Source: Mustelus asterias (lineage: Eukaryota). From it: a stretch of 64,000 nt of DNA. Location: the NCBI RefSeq assembly GCF_964213995.1, contig NC_135804.1, positions 59,706,001-59,770,000 on the forward strand, in the 5' to 3' direction. Of this stretch, positions 2,236 through 58,610 are shown one piece after another. The notes beneath the pieces were generated by a model. The model saw only the letters and a list, made by a program, of their open reading frames with translations. It did no database searches and was not told where the DNA came from. Each line of letters starts with the position of its first letter. The first letter of the stretch is position 1. The position numbers and the translations under genes are program-made.

Positions 2236-2595
2236 CACTGCAACTCATCTTACAAGCAATATCCGGGCGTACACACTGTCCCACCAGCAGAAAATGCTCA
2301 TCAGTCGTGGCATCTTTGTAGTTTACAGTCAGCAGGGTATGACCATAGACGTCCTCAGCATTGGCACTCTGCTGCTCGAAGTCCAATGATACCTGATCAA
2401 TTGCAGCCAAGCAAAACCTCTGCCTGCTTATAGCATGCTGACCCCTCTCAGGTGAAGAACCAGAGTTCTTTCCTGTTGAACACTACTTGAAAGGACACTA
2501 AAAATAGAGGAAACAGAATGTATTCTGCATCGAAGATGTCAATATGTTTCACCAAGAATGGCTCGATAAATGCCCACTTTTTCCATGTTAATTTT

Positions 2596-2914
2596 CATAG
2601 AATCCTGCAATGCAGAAGAAGGCCATTTGGCCCATTGAGTCTGCACCGACCAAAATCCCACCCAGGCCCTATCACCATAACCCCATGCATTTACACTCGC
2701 TAGTCCCCATGACACTAAGGGGCAATTTAGCATGGCAATCCACCTAACCCGCACATCTTTGGATTGAGGGAGGAAACAGGAGCACCCGGGGGAAACCTAC
2801 GCAGATACGGGGAGAACGTACAAACTCCACACAGACAGTGACCCAAGTCAGGAATCGAACCCCGGTCCCAATTTCTGTGAGGCAGCAATGCTAACCACTG
2901 TGCCACTGTGCCGC
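2596..2914 (-). mobile_element. HE1-type tRNA-derived V-SINE
   Basis: Reverse strand: tRNA-like head (gtggcacagtggttagc...gggttcgattcc), V-core (ttctccccgt.tctgcgt.ggtttcc), CR1-like tail ending ttctatg. Confidence 0.9.
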
Positions 2915-3981
2915 ATAAGTCCTCACCCTTTGGCAGGTGAAGCCCTCGTGAATATTCAAAACTTGGGGCCCAATGGTGTAATTTAAGCCACGATGTTATT
3001 TTGACCCTGAGCCATGTGAAATGCTCACAGTGCTAACCCTGCCCAGGGACTCTGCTGAAACAGGGGTCCTGGACCTGCAAAGAGCCCAGGTGAGTAAAAA
3101 CATTTCATGATTTGAAAGTTTTCTTGTGGGCCTGGGGGAGTTGAAGTGCTCCTCCGGTCCTCATAAGGAACCCCAGGGCGTCTGCTGACCAGGATTTCCT
3201 TTCTCCTCATGTGATTGCCACCCGCTCAGATCTCTGCCATCATTTACCAGTTTCCACTTGTCGCTGGTGACGATCTCTGGCCACATGATTTCCCACTTCC
3301 CAATATTGGCTGTTTCTGTAAATTGTATGTATGGGTTCGTCATCATTCGCCCTCCAATGGTCTTACTCAATTGCAAGTCACATGCTTGATTTCTCCTTCT
3401 AAATCCATGACCAAACCCAAGTGCGCACTCTTTCACTGAAATTGGAATGTAGACATCCTTGAATGATTGAATTTAAGCTGGTGAAATGAGACTATAAAAG
3501 ATTCAGATGTTGACAGTGTCGTTTTCTCTGTCAATGAATGTGAGCAGAGCCCCGCCTCAGAGGCTTATAACATAATGTCCCGTGTCTGCAGCATTGCTGT
3601 ACACTGGGCGCCTGAGCACCGTATTATCATTATAAACTATGCTTCAAGCTGGCTCACTATCCATCTCATTTTATAAGTGCAAATTGGAAGTGCCTTTGGT
3701 ATTCGCAGACTGTGCATTGTTGTGTTTAAGATGCTGACCAAAGTGCCAATGTAAACAGATTCCCTAATGTGTTCAGATTGATGATTTAAGCATTTGAAGA
3801 TCGCTTCAAATGCTGTGTACCCACTTAATGGGAGGTGAAGTCTTCAATTTGGCCCAGAAGTGCACCCCAGCCGTCCAGGCCTAGTTGGGCTTGCGTTTGG
3901 TGGACCTGGCCCGGAACAAGATCTGCTCGCACATTCACTGTGGCCCCACACATTGGAAGAAACCTGCACCATGAATCAGAC

Positions 3982-31549: not shown

Positions 31550-32420
31550 GGAAGTAGGGGGAAAAAACAAGTACCTACAGGCCTGTGAGTCGAAACTCAG
31601 TGGTGGGGAAATTTTTAGAAAACTTTCTGAGGGGCAGAATTAATCTGCATTTCGTGAGACAAGGATTAATCAAGAGCAGTCAGCGTGGCTTTGTCAGGGG
31701 CGATCTTGTCAAACAAATTTGATTAATTTTTCGAGGAGGTGATTGCGTGTGCAGATTAGTGCAGTGCAGTCCATGTACGCTGCATGGACTTCCATAAGGA
31801 TTCTGACAAGGTCAAATGGGAGACTGATCAAGAAGATTAGAATCCATAGGATCCACGGCAATTTGGCTAATTGAATGTAAAATTGACTTAGTGGCAGGAG
31901 GCAGAGTGTTATGGTCGAAATTTGTTTTATGACTGGGGGCCAGGGCCCAGTAGTGTGCCCAAGGATCTGTGCTGGGTCACCTGCTGTTTGCATTGTACAT
32001 TAATGATCCAAACGTGAATGTGGAAGCTGTGTTCAGGAAGTTTGCAAATGGCACGAAAAGTTGTGGTGTGGTATACAGGAGGAAAGCTTAGAATACGGAG
32101 TGATAGAGTTGGTATGGTCATATGACCCCTTAATTGAGGGGCCAAGAACAAGGTGCATATATTGAAGATAAGGAGCAGGAGATTTAGAGGTGATTTGAGG
32201 AAAACCTTTTTCACACAGAATGTGGTGGGAATCTGGAATTCACTGTCTGAAAGGATGGTAGAGGTGTGAACTCCTACAGCATTGAAGAAACCTTTAGCTG
32301 AGCACTTCAAACGCCACATACCTCCAACTTTCACGTCTGGATCAATAATGTACACTGCAAACAGCAAGCAACCCAGCACCAATCCTTGGGCCAAGTGCTG
32401 AAAAATGGGATTAGAAAATA
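31550..32420 (+). mobile_element. Old CR1 fragment(s)
   Basis: Decayed YRPVS, SQRGFV and VPQGSVLG blocks. Confidence 0.7.
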
Positions 32421-33729: not shown

Positions 33730-35670
33730 CGTTGTGGGAGGCTCGGGAGGTCCCCGAGCAGAGATATTTAAATCATTGACAGGTACAGGCGATGTGCCTT
33801 AACCATAGAAACATAGACATCCTACAGTCCAGAAGGAGGCCATTCGGCCCATAGATTATGTACCGACCACAATCCCACCCAGGCCTTATTCCCATCACCT
33901 TCATTTGCTAATCACCCTGACGGTAGGGTCAATTTAGCATGACCAATCAACCCAACCCGCACATCTTTGGACAGTGGGAGGAAACCGGAGCACCCGGAGG
34001 AAACCCACGCAGACACGGGGAGAAAGTGAAACCTCCTCACAGACAGTAGTCCAAGGCAGGAATTGAACCTGTGTCCCTGGCGTTGTGTGTCAGCAGTGCT
34101 AACCACTGCGCAACCGCGCCGCCCTTAAGATTGAAGAATGGCAAATATTGTGCCTTTGTTTAAGAAGGGCTGCACTGAAAAGCCCGGGAACGACAGACGG
34201 TGAACTTAACTTATGCAGTGAGTAAGTTGTTAGTAGGTATTCTGAGAGACAGGATCGACAGGCATTTAGAGAGGCAAGGATTGATTCGGGACAGTCAGCA
34301 TGGCTTTGCGAGTGGAAAATCATGTCTCACGAATTTCATTGAGTTTTTTTGAAGGGGTAACCAAGAACGTAGATGAGGGCAGCGCAGTCCACGTTTTCTA
34401 CATGAACTTTAGCAAGCCTTTGACTAGGTACCACATGGTAGGGTGTTGCACGAGGTTAAATCTCACGGGATCCAGAATGAGATAATCAATTGGAAACAAA
34501 ATTAGCTTGACGACAGAAGACAGATGGTGATTGCAGAGGGTTTTGTTTTCCAAACTGGAGGCCTACGATCAGCGGTGTGCCTCAGGGATCTGTGCTGGGT
34601 CCACTGTTATTTATCATTTTTATGAATGATTTGGATGATAATTTATGGGGCCTGGTTAGTAAGTTTGCAGATGACACCAAGATTGGTGGCATAGTGGACA
34701 GTGAAGAAGGTGAGCAGGGTGGTGAAGAAGGCATTCGACATGCTTGATTTCATTGGTCAGAACATTAAATACAGGAGTTAGGACGTCTTGTTGAAGTTGC
34801 ACAAGACATTGGTAAGGCCACACTTCGAATACTCTGTACAGTTCTGGTCACCCTATTATAGAAAGGATATTATTAAACGAGAAAGAATGCAGAAAAGATT
34901 TATTAGGATGCGACCGGGACTTAATGTTTTGAGTTTTAAGGAGCGGCTGGATAGACTGGGACTTTTTTCCCTGGAACGTAGGAGTCTTAGGGGTGATATT
35001 ATAAAGGTCTATGAAATAATGATGGGCATAGATAAAATAGATAGTCAACATATTTTCTCGAATGTAGGGTAGTCTAAAACTAGAGGGCATAGGTTTAAGG
35101 TGAGAGGGGAAAGATACAAAAGGGTCCAAAGGGGCATTTTTTTCACATAGAGGTTGACGAGTGTCTGGAACGAGCTGCCAGATTCAGTAGAGGCGGGTAC
35201 AATTTTGACTTTTCAAAAGCATTTAGGCAGTTTCATATGTAAGATGGATATAGAGGGATATGAGCCAAATGCAGGCAATCGGGAGTCGCTGAGTTGTAAC
35301 AACTGGATGGCACGAACAAACTGGGCTGAAGTGCCTCTGTCCATGCTGTAAACCTTTATGACTCTATGACCCTATGACATGATCTCAAAGTAAGGGTCTC
35401 CCATTTGTAACAGAGATGAGGAGGAATTACTTCTCTCAGAGGGTAGTGAATCTGTGGAATTGTTTACCACAGAGGGCTTTAGAGGTTGGACTGTTTAGTA
35501 TGTTCTAGGCTGAGATAGACAGATTTTTAATCAGTAAGGAATGCTAAGATTACAGGGATAAAACAGGAAGCTGGATTTGCAGATTATCATTTCAGATCAG
35601 TCATGAACTCATTGAAGCAGACTGGATGGGGGGCCAAATGGCCTTCTTCTGCTCCGATGTCTCATGGCCT
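33730..35670 (+). mobile_element. CR1 LINE fragment (33730-35380, internally deleted, SINE inserted) plus a second CR1 3' piece (35380-35670)
   Basis: [34 protein letters not shown]; tail tatgactctatgaccctatgac. Confidence 0.85.
33804..34124 (-). mobile_element. HE1-type SINE inserted in CR1
   Basis: Full head, V-core and tail on the reverse strand. Confidence 0.9.
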
Positions 35671-40991: not shown

Positions 40992-41292
40992 GGGCAGGAC
41001 GGTGGCACATGGTTCGCACTGCTGCCTCACAGCGCCAGGAACCACGTTCGATTGCCATCTTGCATTACTCTCTGTGCGGAGTCCACACGTTCTCCCCTTG
41101 TCTGCATGGGTTTCCTCTGGCTGCTCTGATTTCCTCCCACAGTCCAAAAGATGTGCTGGTTAGGTGCATTAGCCGTGCTAAATTCTCCCTCAGTGTACAC
41201 GAACAGGCGTCAAGCGTGGGGACTAGGGGATTTTCACAGTAACTTCATTGCAGTGCTAATGTAAGTTTACTTGTGACACTAATAAATAAACA
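40992..41292 (+). mobile_element. tRNA-derived V-SINE with alternative tail (gtaacttcattgcagtg...cttgtgacactaataaataaac)
   Basis: Head and V-core as in HE1; different 3' tail. Confidence 0.85.
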
Positions 41293-42423
41293 TTAAAAAA
41301 CGTTATTCAGGAAGCCCGATTGGAAAGGAATGGAATTGATTCGAGTTCTTTGAATGCATAACATGCTGTGGATAAAAAAGGGCAACAACCACATTCCATT
41401 AAAAAATAGAGAAACGCTGATGTGCTTCGCAGGTCGTCGGCCGACACGTGCCAATGGGTGACACATCGCCTGACAGAAAGAACGCTTTGCAAATAAATCA
41501 ATCACTGTCCATTTCTGTGGCTCTTAGGTGCAATTGATCAAAGATTGTCGGCTTTACATCTTGCGAATTTCATCGAGGCAATCAGTATCACTATGTCTTC
41601 TCACTCCCGCGTTGGAGACACGAATCAGATGGCTTGATTAGGGGGAAAGATTGATTCCACTTGCAAAGTGCGTCCTAATTCAGTTCGCCGAGGCACGGCT
41701 GACATTGCACAATTTTCCATTGTTTAGGACCGGCCCTCTCCCTCCAGACTTGCACCATTGCCAGTGGAAAATCCTCCGCCCGCTTATAGCTTCGAATTGC
41801 ACTCAATTCGCCTCCCGGCAACCATTAGAACCCGCCATCGGGAAAAGTGGCAGGCGGCCTTTAAAAAAGTATTTTCTTTTTCGGTTTGCGCGCCGGAAAA
41901 TTTTACTTTTTCACGACACCACCCACATCTCCACCGCTACCCCTGCGTGCCGCCTCACCGTCCGCCTGTAAACCTTCCGTCATGGACCTTGGAAACCACA
42001 TTCCTTCCCCAGCCCCATTCTCGACGTCGAATTTCGCTCAGTTGATTTGCTCTTCCTCCGTGAAGGTCGGGTCTATAGAAGCGCGTAAGCACAGGGCGTA
42101 CGAAAAAGAGCAGGTCATTTGGCCCCTCGAGGCTGCTCTGCCTTTCAATAAGATAATTGCTGATTCGCCTGCCTTTCGAGACCTACATTATCTTCTCCCG
42201 CCGATAACCTTTGGTTCCGTTGTCAAACACAACTCTATCACTGCTTTAAAAATATTCACTGGCCTTCTGAGGTAGAGGTCAAAAGTCGCTAAACCCTCTG
42301 AGAATAAAATATTATCTCTTTATATCTGTCCGATTAGGGCGAGCACATATTTTAAAACAATGCCCCAATTTCTGAACTGACCTATCCTTCCACCATACCA
42401 AGACCATTCGCGATCTGACATAC

Positions 42424-43345
42424 TTAAATACAGATTAAGGAGAATCCCAAGGCTTTCTACAAATATGTCAAGAGTAAAAGGATGAGATGTGAAGGCATAG
42501 GACCCTTAAAAGGTGAAGGGGGAAAAGTTTGTGCGGAACCGTTAGAAATGGCGGAGCTGCTTAATGAATACTTTACCTCGGTATTCACGGTGGAAAGGGA
42601 TCTGGGTGGTTGTACTGCTGGATTGCGGAGGACAGAAAGGATCGAGCATGTGGACATAAAGAAAGAGGATGTGTTGGAACTATTGAATGGCATCAAGGTT
42701 GGTAAGTCGCCGGGACCGGATGGGATGTACCCCAGGTTACTGTGGGAGGCGAGGGAGGAGATTGCGGAGCCTTTGGCGATGATCTTTGCATCGTCGATGG
42801 AGACGGGAGAGGTTCCGGAGGATTGGAGGATTGCGGATGTGGTCCCTATATTCAAGAAAGGGAACAGGGACAGCCCGTGAAATTACCGACCGGTGAGTCT
42901 AACCTCAGTGGTTGGTAAGTTGATGGAGAGGATCCTGAGAGACAGGATTTATGATCATCTAGAGAAGTTTAGTATGATCAAAAGTAGTCAGCACGGCTTT
43001 GTCAGGGGCAGGTCGTGCCTTACGAGCCTGGTTGAGTTCTTTGAAAATGTGACCAAGCACATTGACGAAGGAAGAGCGGTGGATGTGGTCTATATGGACT
43101 TCAGCAAAGCGTTCGATAAGGTCCCCCATGCAAGACTTCTTGAGAAAGTGAGAGGGCATGGGATCCAAGGGGCTGTTGCCTTGTGGATCCAGAACTGGCT
43201 TGCCTGCAGAAGGCAGAGAGTGGCTGTGGAGGGGTCTTTCTCTGCATGGAGGTCAGTGACCAGTGGAGTGCCCCAGGGATCTGTTCTGGGACCCTTGCTG
43301 TTTGTCATTTTCATAAATGACCTGGATGAGGAAGTGGAGGGATGA
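42424..43345 (+). mobile_element. Young CR1 ORF2 segment (linker + N-half of RT), inverted relative to the adjacent 5' part
   Basis: IKENPKAFYKYVKSKR...KSPGPDG...[11 protein letters not shown]...QHGF...[26 protein letters not shown]; one nonsense codon at 42878-42880. Confidence 0.92.
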
Positions 43346-44189
43346 CACTGTATTTCCCTTTACTCCAGAGAAACACTTTCCTAGCCTGCCTGACCCTATC
43401 TCTTTCCAATGCTATCGTGAAGGAGATAGAATTATGATCGCTATCCCCAAGATGCTCACCCACCGAGAGATCCTCCACCTGTCCAGGTTCATTAGCCAGC
43501 ACCAGATCAAGAACAGCCTCTCCTCTAGTAGGCTTATCCACATACTGTGTCAGGAAACTCTCCTGGACACACCTAACAAACTCCTCTCCATCCAAACCCC
43601 TAGCCCTAGGGATATTCCAATCTATGTTTGGGAAATTAAAATCTCCCATCACGACAACTCTGTTATTCCTACATCTCTCCAGGATCTGTTTCCCCATCTG
43701 CTCCTCAACATCTCTGTTACTATTGGGCGGCCTATAGAAAACACCCAGCAAAGTTACCGACCCCTTCCTGTTCCTAACCTCCACCCACAGAGATTCCGTA
43801 GTCAGTCCCTCCACGGCGTCCACCTTCTCTACAGCCGTGACACTATCCCTGATCAACAGTGCCACTCCCCCCCCTCTCTTGCCTCCCTCCCTGTCCTTCC
43901 TGAAACATCTAAAACCCGGCACCTGAAGCACCCAGTCCTGTCCCTGAGACATCCAAGTCTCCGTAATGGCCACCACATCACAATTCGAAGCAGCAATCCA
44001 CGCTCCAAGCTCATCCACTTTATTCACTACACTCCTGGCATTAAAATAGACACATCTCAGACCTTCAGCCTGAGCACTTCCCTTCTCCCTCACTCGTCTA
44101 ACCTCCCTCTTACCCTGTCTACATTCCTTATCTATTTGCGAGCTAACCTCCTCGCTCTCAGTCCCCTCATTTCGATTCCCTCCCCCCAA
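43342..44189 (-). CDS. CR1 ORF2 N-terminus, APE-like endonuclease (truncated at the inversion junction)
   Basis: [41 protein letters not shown] motifs. Confidence 0.9.
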
Positions 44190-44194
44190 CCTTT

Positions 44195-45112
44195 CTAGTT
44201 TAAAGTCTCACCAGTAGCCTTAGCCAACCTTCCCGCCAGGATATTGGTCCCCCTGGGATTCAAGTGCCACCCGTCTTTTTTAAACAGGTCACACCTGCCC
44301 CTAAAGAGGTCCCAATGATCCAAGTACCCAAATCCTTGTCCCTTGCTCCAGTCCCTCAGCCACGCATTAATTCTCCACCGATTCCTGTTCTCACTCTCCC
44401 GCGGCACAGGCAGCAATCCCGAGATTACTACCTTTGCATTCCTCTTTCTCAGCTGTCTACCCAACTCCCTATATTCTCTTTTCATGACCCCTTCCCTCTT
44501 CCTACCTATGTCAGCAGTACCTATATGCATCACGACCTTGGGCTCCTCTCCCTCCCCCTTCAGGATTTCTGGGACTCGACCAGAGACATCCCGGACCCCT
44601 GCACCAGGGAGGCAAACCACCATCCGAGAGTCCCGTCTGTGTCCGCAAAAACGCCTATCTGACCCTCTCACCGTAGAGTCCCCAATTAGCACTACCCTCC
44701 TTTCCTTACCCCTTTGCACTACTGGGCCAGGCTCAGCTCCAGAGACACTGCCACCGCTGCTTCCCCCAGGTGGGCTGTCCACCCCAGTAGTACTCAGACA
44801 GGAGTACTTATTATTAAGGGGCACATCCACCGGGGTGCTCACCATCACCCGAGCTTTCTCCTTCCTCACTGTTACCCAGTTACCCTCCTCCCGTGGTCCC
44901 GGTGTGACCACCTGCCGATAGCTCCTGTCAATGACCTCCTCACTATCCCTAACCCGGCGAAGGTCCTCGAGCTGCAATTCCAGTTCCCTAACATGGTCCC
45001 TTAGGAACCGCAGCTCAACACACCCAGCACAGATATGGTCGTCTGGGAGGCTAGGAGCCTCCAGGACCTCCCACATCCTACATTGGGAACAACATACTGG
45101 CCTGACAGTCAT
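44195..45112 (-). CDS. CR1 ORF1p: zinc-finger/leucine zipper + SGNH esterase domain
   Basis: CxxC..CxxC (CCSQC, CAGC), heptad LRDHVRELELQLEDL, GDS, PGA, HIGTAD, DGWH; open frame. Confidence 0.9.
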   Translation of the reverse strand: MTVRPVCCSQCRMWEVLEAPSLPDDHICAGCVELRFLRDHVRELELQLEDLRRVRDSEEVIDRSYRQVVTPGPREEGNWVTVRKEKARVMVSTPVDVPLNNKYSCLSTTGVDSPPGGSSGGSVSGAEPGPVVQRGKERRVVLIGDSTVRGSDRRFCGHRRDSRMVVCLPGAGVRDVSGRVPEILKGEGEEPKVVMHIGTADIGRKREGVMKREYRELGRQLRKRNAKVVISGLLPVPRESENRNRWRINAWLRDWSKGQGFGYLDHWDLFRGRCDLFKKDGWHLNPRGTNILAGRLAKATGETLN

Positions 45113-45390
45113 ACTTGCCCTTTTAAACACAGGGAAAAAAGTGAATGAAGATTATTCCTCTCTGTTCCAAATTATTTCTACCAAGGTACCCGGAGAAAAG
45201 TAACTTATAAATAAAATTTTTTAAAAATAAGAAACTCACCCCTGCTCGCCCTTTCTGCCTAAGCCCGATGAGCCAAAGCCCCTCAGTTCTCACTCAGCTC
45301 CGTCTCACTCCGCTGCCCGTTCCCAACGCTGCCCGCTAGATAGTGGGACCTGCCTTTTAAACCTCCTGTGCACTAAAAAAAAACTCAAGA

Positions 45391-46550
45391 GACCCTTCCC
45401 AGTAAACCCCGCGGCCACTGCCGGTTGCGCGCCAAAATTTAAAACTAAATTAAATAAATAAATAACACCCGCGGAAAAGTACTTAAAACTAATTCTTACC
45501 CCAAAAATCCTGTCACCAGTCACAGCTCTGCCTTTCTCCACAGCAACAAGAGGACTAACCTCCCAACTAACTGACTTATATAGAACTTTTGACCCTTCCC
45601 AGTAAACCCCGCGGCCACTGCCGGTTGCGCGCCAAAATTTAAAACTAAATTAAATAAATAAATAACACCCGCGGAAAAGTACTTAAAACTAATTCTTACC
45701 CCAAAAATCCTGTCACCAGTCACAGCTCTGCCTTTCTCCACAGCAACAAGAGGACTAACCTCCCAACTAACTGACTTATATAGAACTTTTGACCCTTCCC
45801 AGTAAACCCCGCGGCCACTGCCGGTTGCGCGCCAAAATTTAAAACTAAATTAAATAAATAAATAACACCCGCGGAAAAGTACTTAAAACTAATTCTTACC
45901 CCAAAAATCCTGTCACCAGTCACAGCTCTGCCTTTCTCCACAGCAACAAGAGGACTAACCTCCCAACTAACTGACTTATATAGAACTTTTGACCCTTCCC
46001 AGTAAACCCCGCGGCCACTGCCGGTTGCGCGCCAAAATTTAAAACTAAATTAAATAAATAAATAACACCCGCGGAAAAGTACTTAAAACTAATTCTTACC
46101 CCAAAAATCCTGTCACCAGTCACAGCTCTGCCTTTCTCCACAGCAACAAGAGGACTAACCTCCCAACTAACTGACTTATATAGAACTTTTGACCCTTCCC
46201 AGTAAACCCCGCGGCCACTGCCGGTTGCGCGCCAAAATTTAAAACTAAATTAAATAAATAAATAACACCCGCGGAAAAGTACTTAAAACTAATTCTTACC
46301 CCAAAAATCCTGTCACCAGTCACAGCTCTGCCTTTCTCCACAGCAACAAGAGGACTAACCTCCCAACTAACTGACTTATATAGAACTTTTGACCCTTCCC
46401 AGTAAACCCCGCGGCCACTGCCGGTTGCGCGCCAAAATTTAAAACTAAATTAAATAAATAAATAACACCCGCGGAAAAGTACTTAAAACTAATTCTTACC
46501 CCAAAAATCCTGTCACCAGTCACAGCTCTGCCTTTCTCCACAGCAACAAG
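45391..46550 (-). repeat. Perfect tandem array, 200-bp unit x 5.8, forming the CR1 5' end
   Basis: Units start at 45391, 45591, 45791, 45991, 46191 and 46391 (last one 160 bp). They appear identical by eye. Confidence 0.97.
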
Positions 46551-56510: not shown

Positions 56511-58232
56511 GGAATTATGCTTGGAGCCCAAAGAAGTAGGGGAGATCCTAAATGAATACTTTGCCTCGGTATTCACAAAGGAGAGGGATGTGTTGACTGG
56601 GAGTGTCTCGGAGGGGAGTGTTGAACCGTTGGAGAAAATCTCCATTACAAAGGAGGAAGTGTTAGGTTTGTTTGAGAATATAAAGACTGACAAATCCCCA
56701 GGGCCTGATGGAATCTATCCAAGGCTGCTCAGGGAGACGAGAGATGAAATCGTTGGGCCTCTGATGCAAATCTTTGTCTCGCCACTGGACGCAGGTGAGG
56801 TCCCAGAGGATTGGAGGATAGCTAATGTGGTCCCGTTATTTAAGAAGGGTAGGAAGGATAACCCGGGTAATTATAGGCTGGTGAGCTTGACGTCCGTGGT
56901 GGGGAAGTTGTTGGAGAAGATTCTTAGAGATAGGATGTATGCACATTTAGAAAGGAATAAACTCATTAACGATAGTCAGCATGGTTTTGTGAGAGGGAGG
57001 TCATGCCTCACTAACCTGGTGGAGTTTTTTGAAGAAGTGACCAAAATGGTTGACGAGGGAAGGGCCGTGGATGTCGCCTATATGGACTTTAGTAAAGCGT
57101 TTGACAAAGTCCCTCATGATAGGCTGGTGAAAAAGGTTGGATCTCATGGGATAAAGGGGGAGGTGGCTAGATGGGTGGAGAACTGGCTTGGTCACAGAAG
57201 ACAGAGGGTGGTAGTGGAAGGGTCTTTTTCCGGCTGGAGGCCTGTGACTAGTGGTGTTCCGCAGGGCTCTGTATTGGGACCTCCACTGTTTGTGATTTAT
57301 ATAAATGATCTGGAAGCAGGTGTAACTGGGGTGATCAGTAAGTTTGCGGACGACATGAAATTGGCAGGACTTGCAGATAGTGAGGAGCATTGTCAGAAGG
57401 ATATAGATAGGCTGGAAATTTGGGCAAAGAAATGGCAGATGGAGTTCAATCCTGATGAATGCGAAGTGATGCATTTTGGTAGAAATAATGTCGGGAGGAG
57501 CTATACGATAAATGGCAGAACCATAAAGGGTGTAGGTACGCAGAGGGACCTGGGTGTGCAAGTCCACAGATCCTTGAAGGTGACGTCACAGGTGGAGAAG
57601 ATGGTGAAGAAGGCATATGGCATGCTTGCCGTTATAGGACGGGGCATAGAGTATAAAAGTTGGGGTCTGATGTTGCAGATGTATAGAACGTTGGTTCGGC
57701 CGCATTTGGAATACTGCTTCCAGTTCTGGTGGCCACACTACCAGAAGGACGTGGAGGCTTTGGAGAGAGTACAGAGGAGGTTTACCAGGATGTTGCCTGG
57801 TATGGAGGGGCTTAGTTATGAGGAGAGATTGGGTAAACTGGGGCTGTTCTCCCTGGAAGGACGGAGGATGAGGGGAGACTTGATAGAGGTGTATAAAATT
57901 ATGAAAGGCATAGATAGGGTGAACGGTGGGAAGCTTTTCCCCAGGTCGGTGGTGACGTTCACGAGGGGTCATAGGTTCAAGGTGAAGGGGGGGAGGTTTA
58001 ACACAGATATCAGAAGGACATATTTTACACAGAGGGTGGTGGGGGCCTGGAATGCGCTGCCAGGAAAGGTGGTGGAGGCGGACACACTGGGAACGTTTAC
58101 GACTTATCTAGACAGCCATATGAACGGAGTTGGAATGGAGGGATACAAAAGAATGGTCTAGTTTGGACCAGGGAGCGGCGCGGGCTTGGAGGGCCGAAGG
58201 GCCTGTTCCTGTGCTGTATTGTTCTTTGTTCT
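56511..58232 (+). mobile_element. Young 5'-truncated CR1 LINE with an open RT frame (56511-58161), inserted in the Harbinger
   Basis: Uninterrupted ~550-aa frame with [21 protein letters not shown]; tail ttgttctttgttct; candidate TSD AAC (56508-56510 / 58233-58235). Confidence 0.95.
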
Positions 58233-58610
58233 AACCCTTCCTCCTCCCTCTGGGTTGCTGTAGGCCCTAGTTCACTCCATGGGATGGCAGTGCTTCTGCA
58301 ATGAGCTCCAGAAGATCCGGTGTCAAATGGCCCGGCCAGTCCTGGAGGACCAATTGCATTCTTGCCATGGTGGGCGTGCCCTGAGCGATGGCCCTCTGAG
58401 TCTGGGGCCATCTGCCAGTGACAAGCACCAAATGCCCTCTGACACGGGGCTACGCTCTTTAGCTCTTCAGCCATGGTGGCTGGGCCACATTCTCAAGGTC
58501 TGCTTCATAGCGAACTGTGTTTCAGCATATCCCGCTGGGTCACCTGCATGCTCTCGAGCCTCTCAGTCATAGGATGCAGAATCTCAGGAAGACTGTTGAG
58601 GCCCTCAACT

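Follow-up and report, generated by a model that had tools for sequence, protein, structure and literature searches.

The window analyzed here, a 64,000-nucleotide stretch of the Mustelus asterias genome, carries on its minus strand the 5′ part of a CR1 LINE preceded by a tandem array (Table 1). TRF reported an array with a period of 200, 5.8 copies and 100% matches at 45391-46550, and unit-by-unit comparison resolved it into five units of 200 bp and one of 160 bp, with 0 mismatches and no extension on either side, just as the original prediction had described: 5.8 identical units at the extreme 5′ end, the outermost partial (160 bp), and a tether of about 280 bp, measured at 278 bp. Because the element lies on the minus strand, the partial unit is its 5′-most one. 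With monomer position 1 set at window position 45590 and counted along the minus strand, this outermost unit begins at monomer position 41 and is without a TATA box; the box at monomer positions 9-16 is the sole strict TATA match in the unit when both strands are checked. The most frequent 5′ end among related copies, C39, lies at window position 45552, with the first T of the box 30 nt upstream of it. The units had also been described as having a CpG-rich core; CpG enrichment holds for the observed/expected ratio (0.93 versus 0.61 for the window), but with 7 CpG per unit and 42.5% GC the enrichment is modest. ORF1 matches Pfam PF13472 (E 6e-13) and PDB entry 4c1b, an "ORF1-encoded protein" (E 4e-23).

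Table 1. Array, tether and coding parts of the CR1 copy in the window (families A′, B, C and D are described in the text)
Feature	Window position	Strand	Basis
Array: 5 full 200-bp monomers and outermost 160-bp partial unit	45391..46550	-	TRF and direct comparison
TATA box of innermost monomer (monomer positions 9-16)	45575..45582	-	Sequence; spacing kept in A′, B, C, D
Other TATA boxes of the array	45775-82, 45975-82, 46175-82, 46375-82	-	Repeats of the innermost box
Predicted start region, pyrimidine-rich, TCT-like (monomer 37-44), every 200 bp	45547..45554	-	5′-end histogram; TCT consensus (PMC5580651)
Tether, 278 bp, between array and ORF1 ATG	45113..45390	-	Sequence comparison
Second TATA-like box, within tether, little sign of use	45354-45361	-	5′-end mapping
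Intron 1, 127 nt; donor at monomer 92, acceptor after poly-T at tether start	45373..45499	-	Spliced copies
Intron 2, 120 nt, GT-AG, ends 7 nt before ORF1 ATG	45120..45239	-	Copy L078
ORF1, 305 aa, GDSL/SGNH esterase domain; ATG 45112-45110	44195..45112	-	Pfam, PDB
ORF2, 5′ part (AP endonuclease), cut at family position 2051	43341..44207	-	Pfam PF03372
RT fragment of the same family in inverted orientation (family positions 2371-3283; 99.7% identity, one stop)	42432..43344	+	Alignment to family

The window copy itself is dead, its ORF2 being both broken and inverted. Aligned to an intact sister, it runs through positions 1-2051 on the minus strand and continues, inverted, from 3283 to 2371 on the plus strand; the two pieces (43341-45390 and 42432-43344) meet tail to tail with 4 nt of microhomology, 319 bp are missing between them, and the 3′ 900 bp and the tail are found nowhere in the window. 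We rejected twin priming, since the tail-to-tail geometry is opposite to that model. Both pieces carry one common lineage marker, and the copy may derive from a single element through inversion and loss or from the collapse of two copies that faced each other. The window also holds older CR1 fragments (56532-58233, 2-700, 34129-34910 and 31576-31701) that are 66-73% identical to the family, and at 41000-41300 an element with an A-rich tail, which we take to be SINE-like, of a kind that often recurs beside the other loci that we fetched.

Searching the genome with the monomer gave 391 candidate loci and with the tether 1917, of which 40 each were scored; the copies fetched from both searches, which with the window copy make up the sample of what we call family A, occupy 69 distinct loci besides the window. 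Among the scored loci, array, tether and ORF1 followed one another at 39 out of 39 other monomer loci, bearing out the claim that the monomer always lies 5′ of a CR1 ORF1, and the number of full units ranged from 0 to 8, as variable as had been expected. In the 40 tether-picked copies, the window copy included, there were 0 full units in 23, 1 in 12, 2 in 2, and 4, 5 and 8 in one copy each. Exact patterns matched 142 monomer-monomer and 202 monomer-tether junctions genome-wide, and a tether exon motif common to family A and a subfamily, A′, had 316 matches. The perfect identity of the units in the window might be expected of local slippage, an assembly artefact or an independent satellite. Against these stand the linkage to tether and ORF1 at all 39 other monomer loci, the dispersal of the 142 junctions in runs of at most 8 at the loci seen, and the finding that in 3 of 4 runs read-derived contigs show a tandem joint of 200 bp, the source sample possibly being among these runs. 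With dozens of loci, 142 exact junctions and read-derived contigs, the array is not an assembly artefact; linkage and junction counts likewise give no long arrays independent of the mobile element, as a satellite would have, and for the family we put the chance of this whole group of explanations at practically nil.

Both ORFs are intact in 54 of the 69 sister copies, and family A copies differ from one another by a mean of 0.29% (L031 left out). CR1 elements end in a microsatellite tail instead of poly-A, and their target-site duplications are short or absent; here a script resolved a 7-mer 3′ tail in 42 of 70 copies, with a target-site duplication of at least 6 nt in 4 of these 42. An esterase ORF1 (PF13472, PDB 4c1b) and an ORF2 with AP endonuclease and RT are likewise present in the family, the latter broken in the window copy. 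On these three features the family is provisionally assigned to CR1; esterase ORF1s are known from vertebrate CR1 and some L2 (PMC13343379). Three copies have further insertions or positions of their own: one family A copy is nested within an element of family B (L059), L090 has another CR1 inside ORF1, and L089 has an insertion in ORF2.

The sister copies begin at a preferred place, in line with the original prediction of a favored truncation point. Among the 40 tether-picked copies, 28 have their 5′ end at monomer 35-49 (p = 7e-23, an optimistic value because the copies are related), and when A and A′ are pooled, the start lies at TATA+28 to +36 in 71 of 121 monomer-starting copies, compared with only 2 at +26/27 and 6 at +10 to +25. 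The mapping leaves out L231, L232, L238, L166 and L190 (unmapped) and L110 (misaligned), with duplicate loci merged. C39 is the most frequent 5′ end (18 copies), and a strict TATA would occur in the corresponding interval by chance with a frequency of 0.002 (mononucleotide shuffle, post hoc). An RT can copy the cap G. Copies that start at C39 have an additional G in front of it in 9 of 18 cases, compared with 6 of 37 at neighboring starts (p = 0.011, post hoc); this only hints at a copied cap, as 4 of the 9 are re-copying junctions. No two of the 70 copies with equal 5′ ends have at least 5 nt of common upstream flank. There are two minor clusters of 5′ ends: one at monomer 195-5 (L045, L097, L076, L038, L062, L051), immediately 3′ of G-rich sequence at which the RT might stall, and one at monomer 79-87 (L040, L046, L048, L072, L080, L084, L098), which may be a minor start.

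Four further CR1 (sub)families of the same genome, found in the flanks of the fetched loci, have homologous 5′ units of 183-236 bp: A′ (200 bp, ORF1 76% identical to that of A), B (183 bp, 55%), C (236 bp, 49-52%) and D (214 bp, 50%). Unit homology scores were z 9.4 for A-C, 9.9 for B-C and 3.8 for A-B. In all five, 5′ ends cluster at a pyrimidine tract that follows a TATA or TATA-like box at a distance of 28-29 nt. For B, 29 of 30 mapped copies begin at positions 18-33, six of them at the +29 edge, with a query that favored long 5′ ends; the monomer-picked sample of C is biased in the same way, and in an exon-picked sample of C 9 of 28 distinct loci begin at +29 to +34. For D, 23 of 30 copies begin at -2 to +14 of the tract. 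According to a review, the TATA box of core promoters has its first T between -32 and -28, and TCT promoters initiate at the C of their consensus (PMC5580651), and human TCT promoters are enriched in TATA (2026 paper, PMC13532657). With the start inferred from 5′ ends, A, A′ and D match TATAWR with the first T at -30 from the modal or motif C, while B and C have TTTAAAAG as the box, with one mismatch to that consensus; the TCT consensus is matched at 7/7 positions in A′ and D and at 6/7 in A, B and C, some 5′ ends lying 1-2 nt upstream.

The 28 nt from box to tract, missing from short copies, are identical between A and C at 21 of 28 positions, compared with 62% for the whole unit and 49-52% amino acid identity for ORF1. 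Because homologous units with the same box spacing recur in (sub)families whose ORF1s are 49-76% identical, the design is, on this comparison, old, and only the expansion of family A is recent. Thus "very recent", as originally proposed, applies to the spread of family A (0.29% divergence) but not to the design, which is common to families with about 50% ORF1 identity. Exchange of 5′UTRs between families could be an alternative source of the common unit parts. At L233, and at L184 and L179 compared with L191, a B-like or C unit stands on a different ORF1 start, a mixture that suggests such exchange. Other conserved blocks in the units resemble transcription-factor sites, presumably ETS-like and E2F-like. 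The original suggestion that the 200-bp period approximates a nucleosome repeat finds no support, and the periods of 183, 200, 214 and 236 bp across the families speak against it; WW power at 10-10.5 bp was 2.5-3.4 times the mean and below that of the 11.8-bp bin, in a spectrum taken without a shuffle control.

Splicing has left traces in a few copies. Two genomic copies (L132, the same as L160, and L161) are without exactly the 127-nt intron 1, the donor at monomer 92 being joined to the tether start, versus 202 unspliced monomer-tether junctions, and 1 of 69 copies (L078) is without exactly the 120-nt GT-AG segment before the ATG. The exact absence of GT-AG segments from these three copies therefore places one intron in the unit and one in the tether. 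Such genomic copies show that splicing of the RNA occurs at both places and that most of the RNA used for retrotransposition keeps its introns. In A, A′, C and D, though not in B, the predicted start is followed after 54-57 nt by a donor-like site. Doubly spliced copies, with the monomer donor joined to the ORF1 acceptor, had 0 matches to a pattern that covered one of two alleles before the ATG. Splice joints were likewise absent from the read-derived contigs, an outcome to which we give no weight. L153 (A′) is without intron 2 and the ORF1 start and has no clean GT-AG join.

Array length appears to follow lineage. In a tree of 67 copies (L089 and L090 left out for their insertions and the window copy for its break), at least 3 full units are found in 5 of 11 copies of one sublineage versus 3 of 33 others with at least 1 unit (p = 0.016, on copies that are not independent). 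The arrays of that sublineage have 1, 3, 4, 7 and 8 full units, and 10 of its 11 copies end at 35-49; the window copy belongs to a different lineage. Unit variants recur in neighboring or alternate units in L073, L094 and L057 and are shifted in register between the sisters L053/L057 and L059/L093, a pattern that points to in-register duplication and loss of units. In four copies the 5′ end is re-copied at position 39, giving three short direct repeats and one fold-back; by extension, a re-copying jump of exactly one unit would add one unit. With about 200 near-identical copies, most of those sampled having intact ORFs, family A makes array regrowth testable, and the lineage-linked lengths and the captured re-copying events support such a test.

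Given the linkage to the element, the variable unit number, the clustered 5′ ends, the TATA spacing kept in five (sub)families, the used splice donor of the unit and the scarcity of copies that start at TATA boxes without a downstream unit body, we think it probable that each unit is an RNA polymerase II promoter straddling its own start. The 5′ ends of copies would then mark capped start sites, the TCT-like start receiving its TATA box from upstream and having downstream elements inside the transcript; initiation would need sequence downstream of +21, with the TATA box fixing its position or raising its level. Each round of copying would leave behind the TATA box of the outermost unit but not those of the inner units, and as any inner unit could start an RNA, long-array parents would give shorter-array daughters. 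Arrays would regrow by in-register duplication, either through unequal exchange or because the RT copies the 5′ end of the RNA again. Retrotransposition would draw mainly on unspliced RNA, with spliced RNA serving as mRNA. Within this promoter-straddling reading lies a stricter form, a countdown in which the outside TATA box is required and each retrotransposition burns one unit, which we hold as a tentative possibility. The majority of copies, with 0.8 unit, would under the countdown be intact but silent and only copies with a full unit would be sources, and the lineage would have survived since the ORF1s were about 50% identical by regrowing its array, possibly via RT re-copying. The reading of family A also predicts which copies are sources.

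A simple TATA model does less well. It predicted a large class of copies that start 30 nt below the TATA-like box of the tether, and the first 30 unbiased A/A′ loci contained 0 of them; after 27 loci picked as being without an A junction were added, 4 of 10 tether starts fell at +24 to +35 (p = 0.027), which is weak. The family C sample, whose tether box is canonical, had 0 of 28 starts 30 nt below it. The predicted class of promoter-less copies made from the tether TATA was rejected on these results, and in D such starts are rare (1/30). Family D acts as a natural control: in nearly all of its copies the tether is directly preceded by an entire upstream region, the TATA box and the first 21 nt, and only 1 of 30 copies starts at that unit, versus 23 of 30 at the full unit; an intact TATA box stands ahead of the outermost unit in 0 of 30 copies. 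It follows that TATA and start site are insufficient and that unit sequence further downstream is needed for initiation or for full-length copying. The D pattern fits TATA-independent internal initiation equally well, and rare long-array masters would explain it just as well.

Such internal initiation, a purely internal promoter as in mouse L1 by which 0.8-unit copies start at their own 5′ end and the TATA box is a passenger, seems to us rather unlikely, even though three observations speak for it: more than half of the tether-picked copies (23/40) are without any full unit, D copies start at the unit 5′ end with no upstream TATA kept, and TATA boxes without a downstream unit body yield few daughters. 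Transcripts of this kind would not include the TATA segment, which is nevertheless more conserved between families than any other block, and the common upstream flank that starts directed from inside into neighboring DNA might leave is missing among the 70 copies, a weak test. The common 5′ end could also be an RT stop or an RNA processing site, with arrays arising as the RT slips in the 5′UTR; the tethers of A, A′ and C do repeatedly contain tandem duplications of 36-52 bp, and 5′-end re-copying junctions do occur. We nevertheless find this improbable given the canonical spacing that the sharp upstream edge keeps to a TATA or TATA-like box across the five (sub)families, the inheritance of array length by lineage (5/11 versus 3/33) and the extra-G hint at C39. 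Less probable again, to the point of being hardly credible, is a boundary formed by a 3′ splice site on transcripts from host promoters: an AG does precede the boundary in A, A′ and B, and the region upstream in B is acceptor-like, but A is without a pyrimidine tract and both copies spliced at intron 1 join the monomer donor to the tether rather than to the next monomer. The boundary of family C is not a splice acceptor because no AG precedes it, which largely refutes this explanation, and D, also without an AG there, argues against it too.

The promoter-straddling reading and the layout of the array invite comparison with mouse L1Md (A, Gf and Tf), which belongs to a different LINE clade and has tandem units of about 200 bp in variable number and a tether of 250-280 bp, with a truncated 5′-most unit whose preferred point is interpreted as a start site (PMC6454616, PMC9022269, PMC5381506). 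The original prediction of a mouse-L1-like promoter array therefore stands for the layout but not for the parts: unlike in mouse L1, and with the transcript start inferred from 5′ ends, the units here start at a TCT-like sequence, contain a 5′ splice site that is used, and have their TATA box at -30, beyond the transcript. Additive activity, the mouse-type trait in which promoter output rises with unit number and CAGE peaks lie within the units, would be a prediction for this array. Truncations of mouse Tf and Gf cluster near a YY1 site (PMC6454616), in whose place here is a TATA box 30 nt upstream; on reading, the YY1 motif given in that paper is absent from both strands of the 200-bp unit, and the word TATA is absent from the main text of the two mouse L1 monomer papers checked. 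For regrowth of the mouse arrays, unequal crossing-over or second-strand priming has been proposed, and the matter is treated as an open question (PMC6454616, PMC9022269, PMC5381506). LINE promoters are assumed to be internal (PMC6454616); CR1 would depart from this rule with a conserved TATA box that lies beyond the transcript and is retained through the chaining of tandem units.

If the countdown is true, this non-LTR element would have its own answer to a problem for which LTRs rely on strand transfer, and would pair it with mRNA that is spliced and genomic RNA that is not. Tandem repetition of a 5′ part is known from the A-module of Dictyostelium TRE5-A. This module, at 200 bp, has promoter activity (PMC3159450). 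Drosophila HeT-A follows a similar LTR-like logic in that its upstream promoter sequence comes from a head-to-tail neighbor, but it uses the 3′UTR of a neighboring whole element at telomeres, and here a short unit in the element's own 5′ end would do so (PMC5537684). Penelope has an internal intron as well, with an internal promoter similar to TATA-less LINE promoters (PMC2377424). Closest in clade are CR1-group elements, which account for 22-34% of the genomes of sharks and rays (PMC13343379) and for which a legend (Fig. 4) of that paper notes 1-5 subunits of 100-500 bp near the 5′UTR, in elements without ORF1, unlike the present family with its esterase ORF1; its main text proposes no function for them and does not mention promoter, monomer, tandem or TATA. 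In the main texts consulted, this legend was the only report of 5′ subunits in the CR1 group. The 5′UTR of chicken CR1-B/F also has reporter activity, as a single UTR of about 240 bp with E boxes, for which the parts of the paper seen describe no monomer array and do not mention TATA; a 32-bp direct repeat is mentioned there for turtle and pufferfish CR1 (PMC2734521).

Shorter tandem repeats accompany the families at other places. Tandem duplications of 36-52 bp, with up to about 6 copies, lie at a homologous place of the tether (exon 2) in three families (L077, L084 and L231 in A; L135 in A′; L168, L243, L250 and L256 in the C sample), and this place is apparently a hot spot of slippage or template jumping. 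Outside the elements' units, a 52-bp tandem array of 10 copies lies upstream of a family B copy (L129, 939-1476), and a 38-bp array of 31 copies lies downstream of a family C tether motif (L256, 1892-3032).
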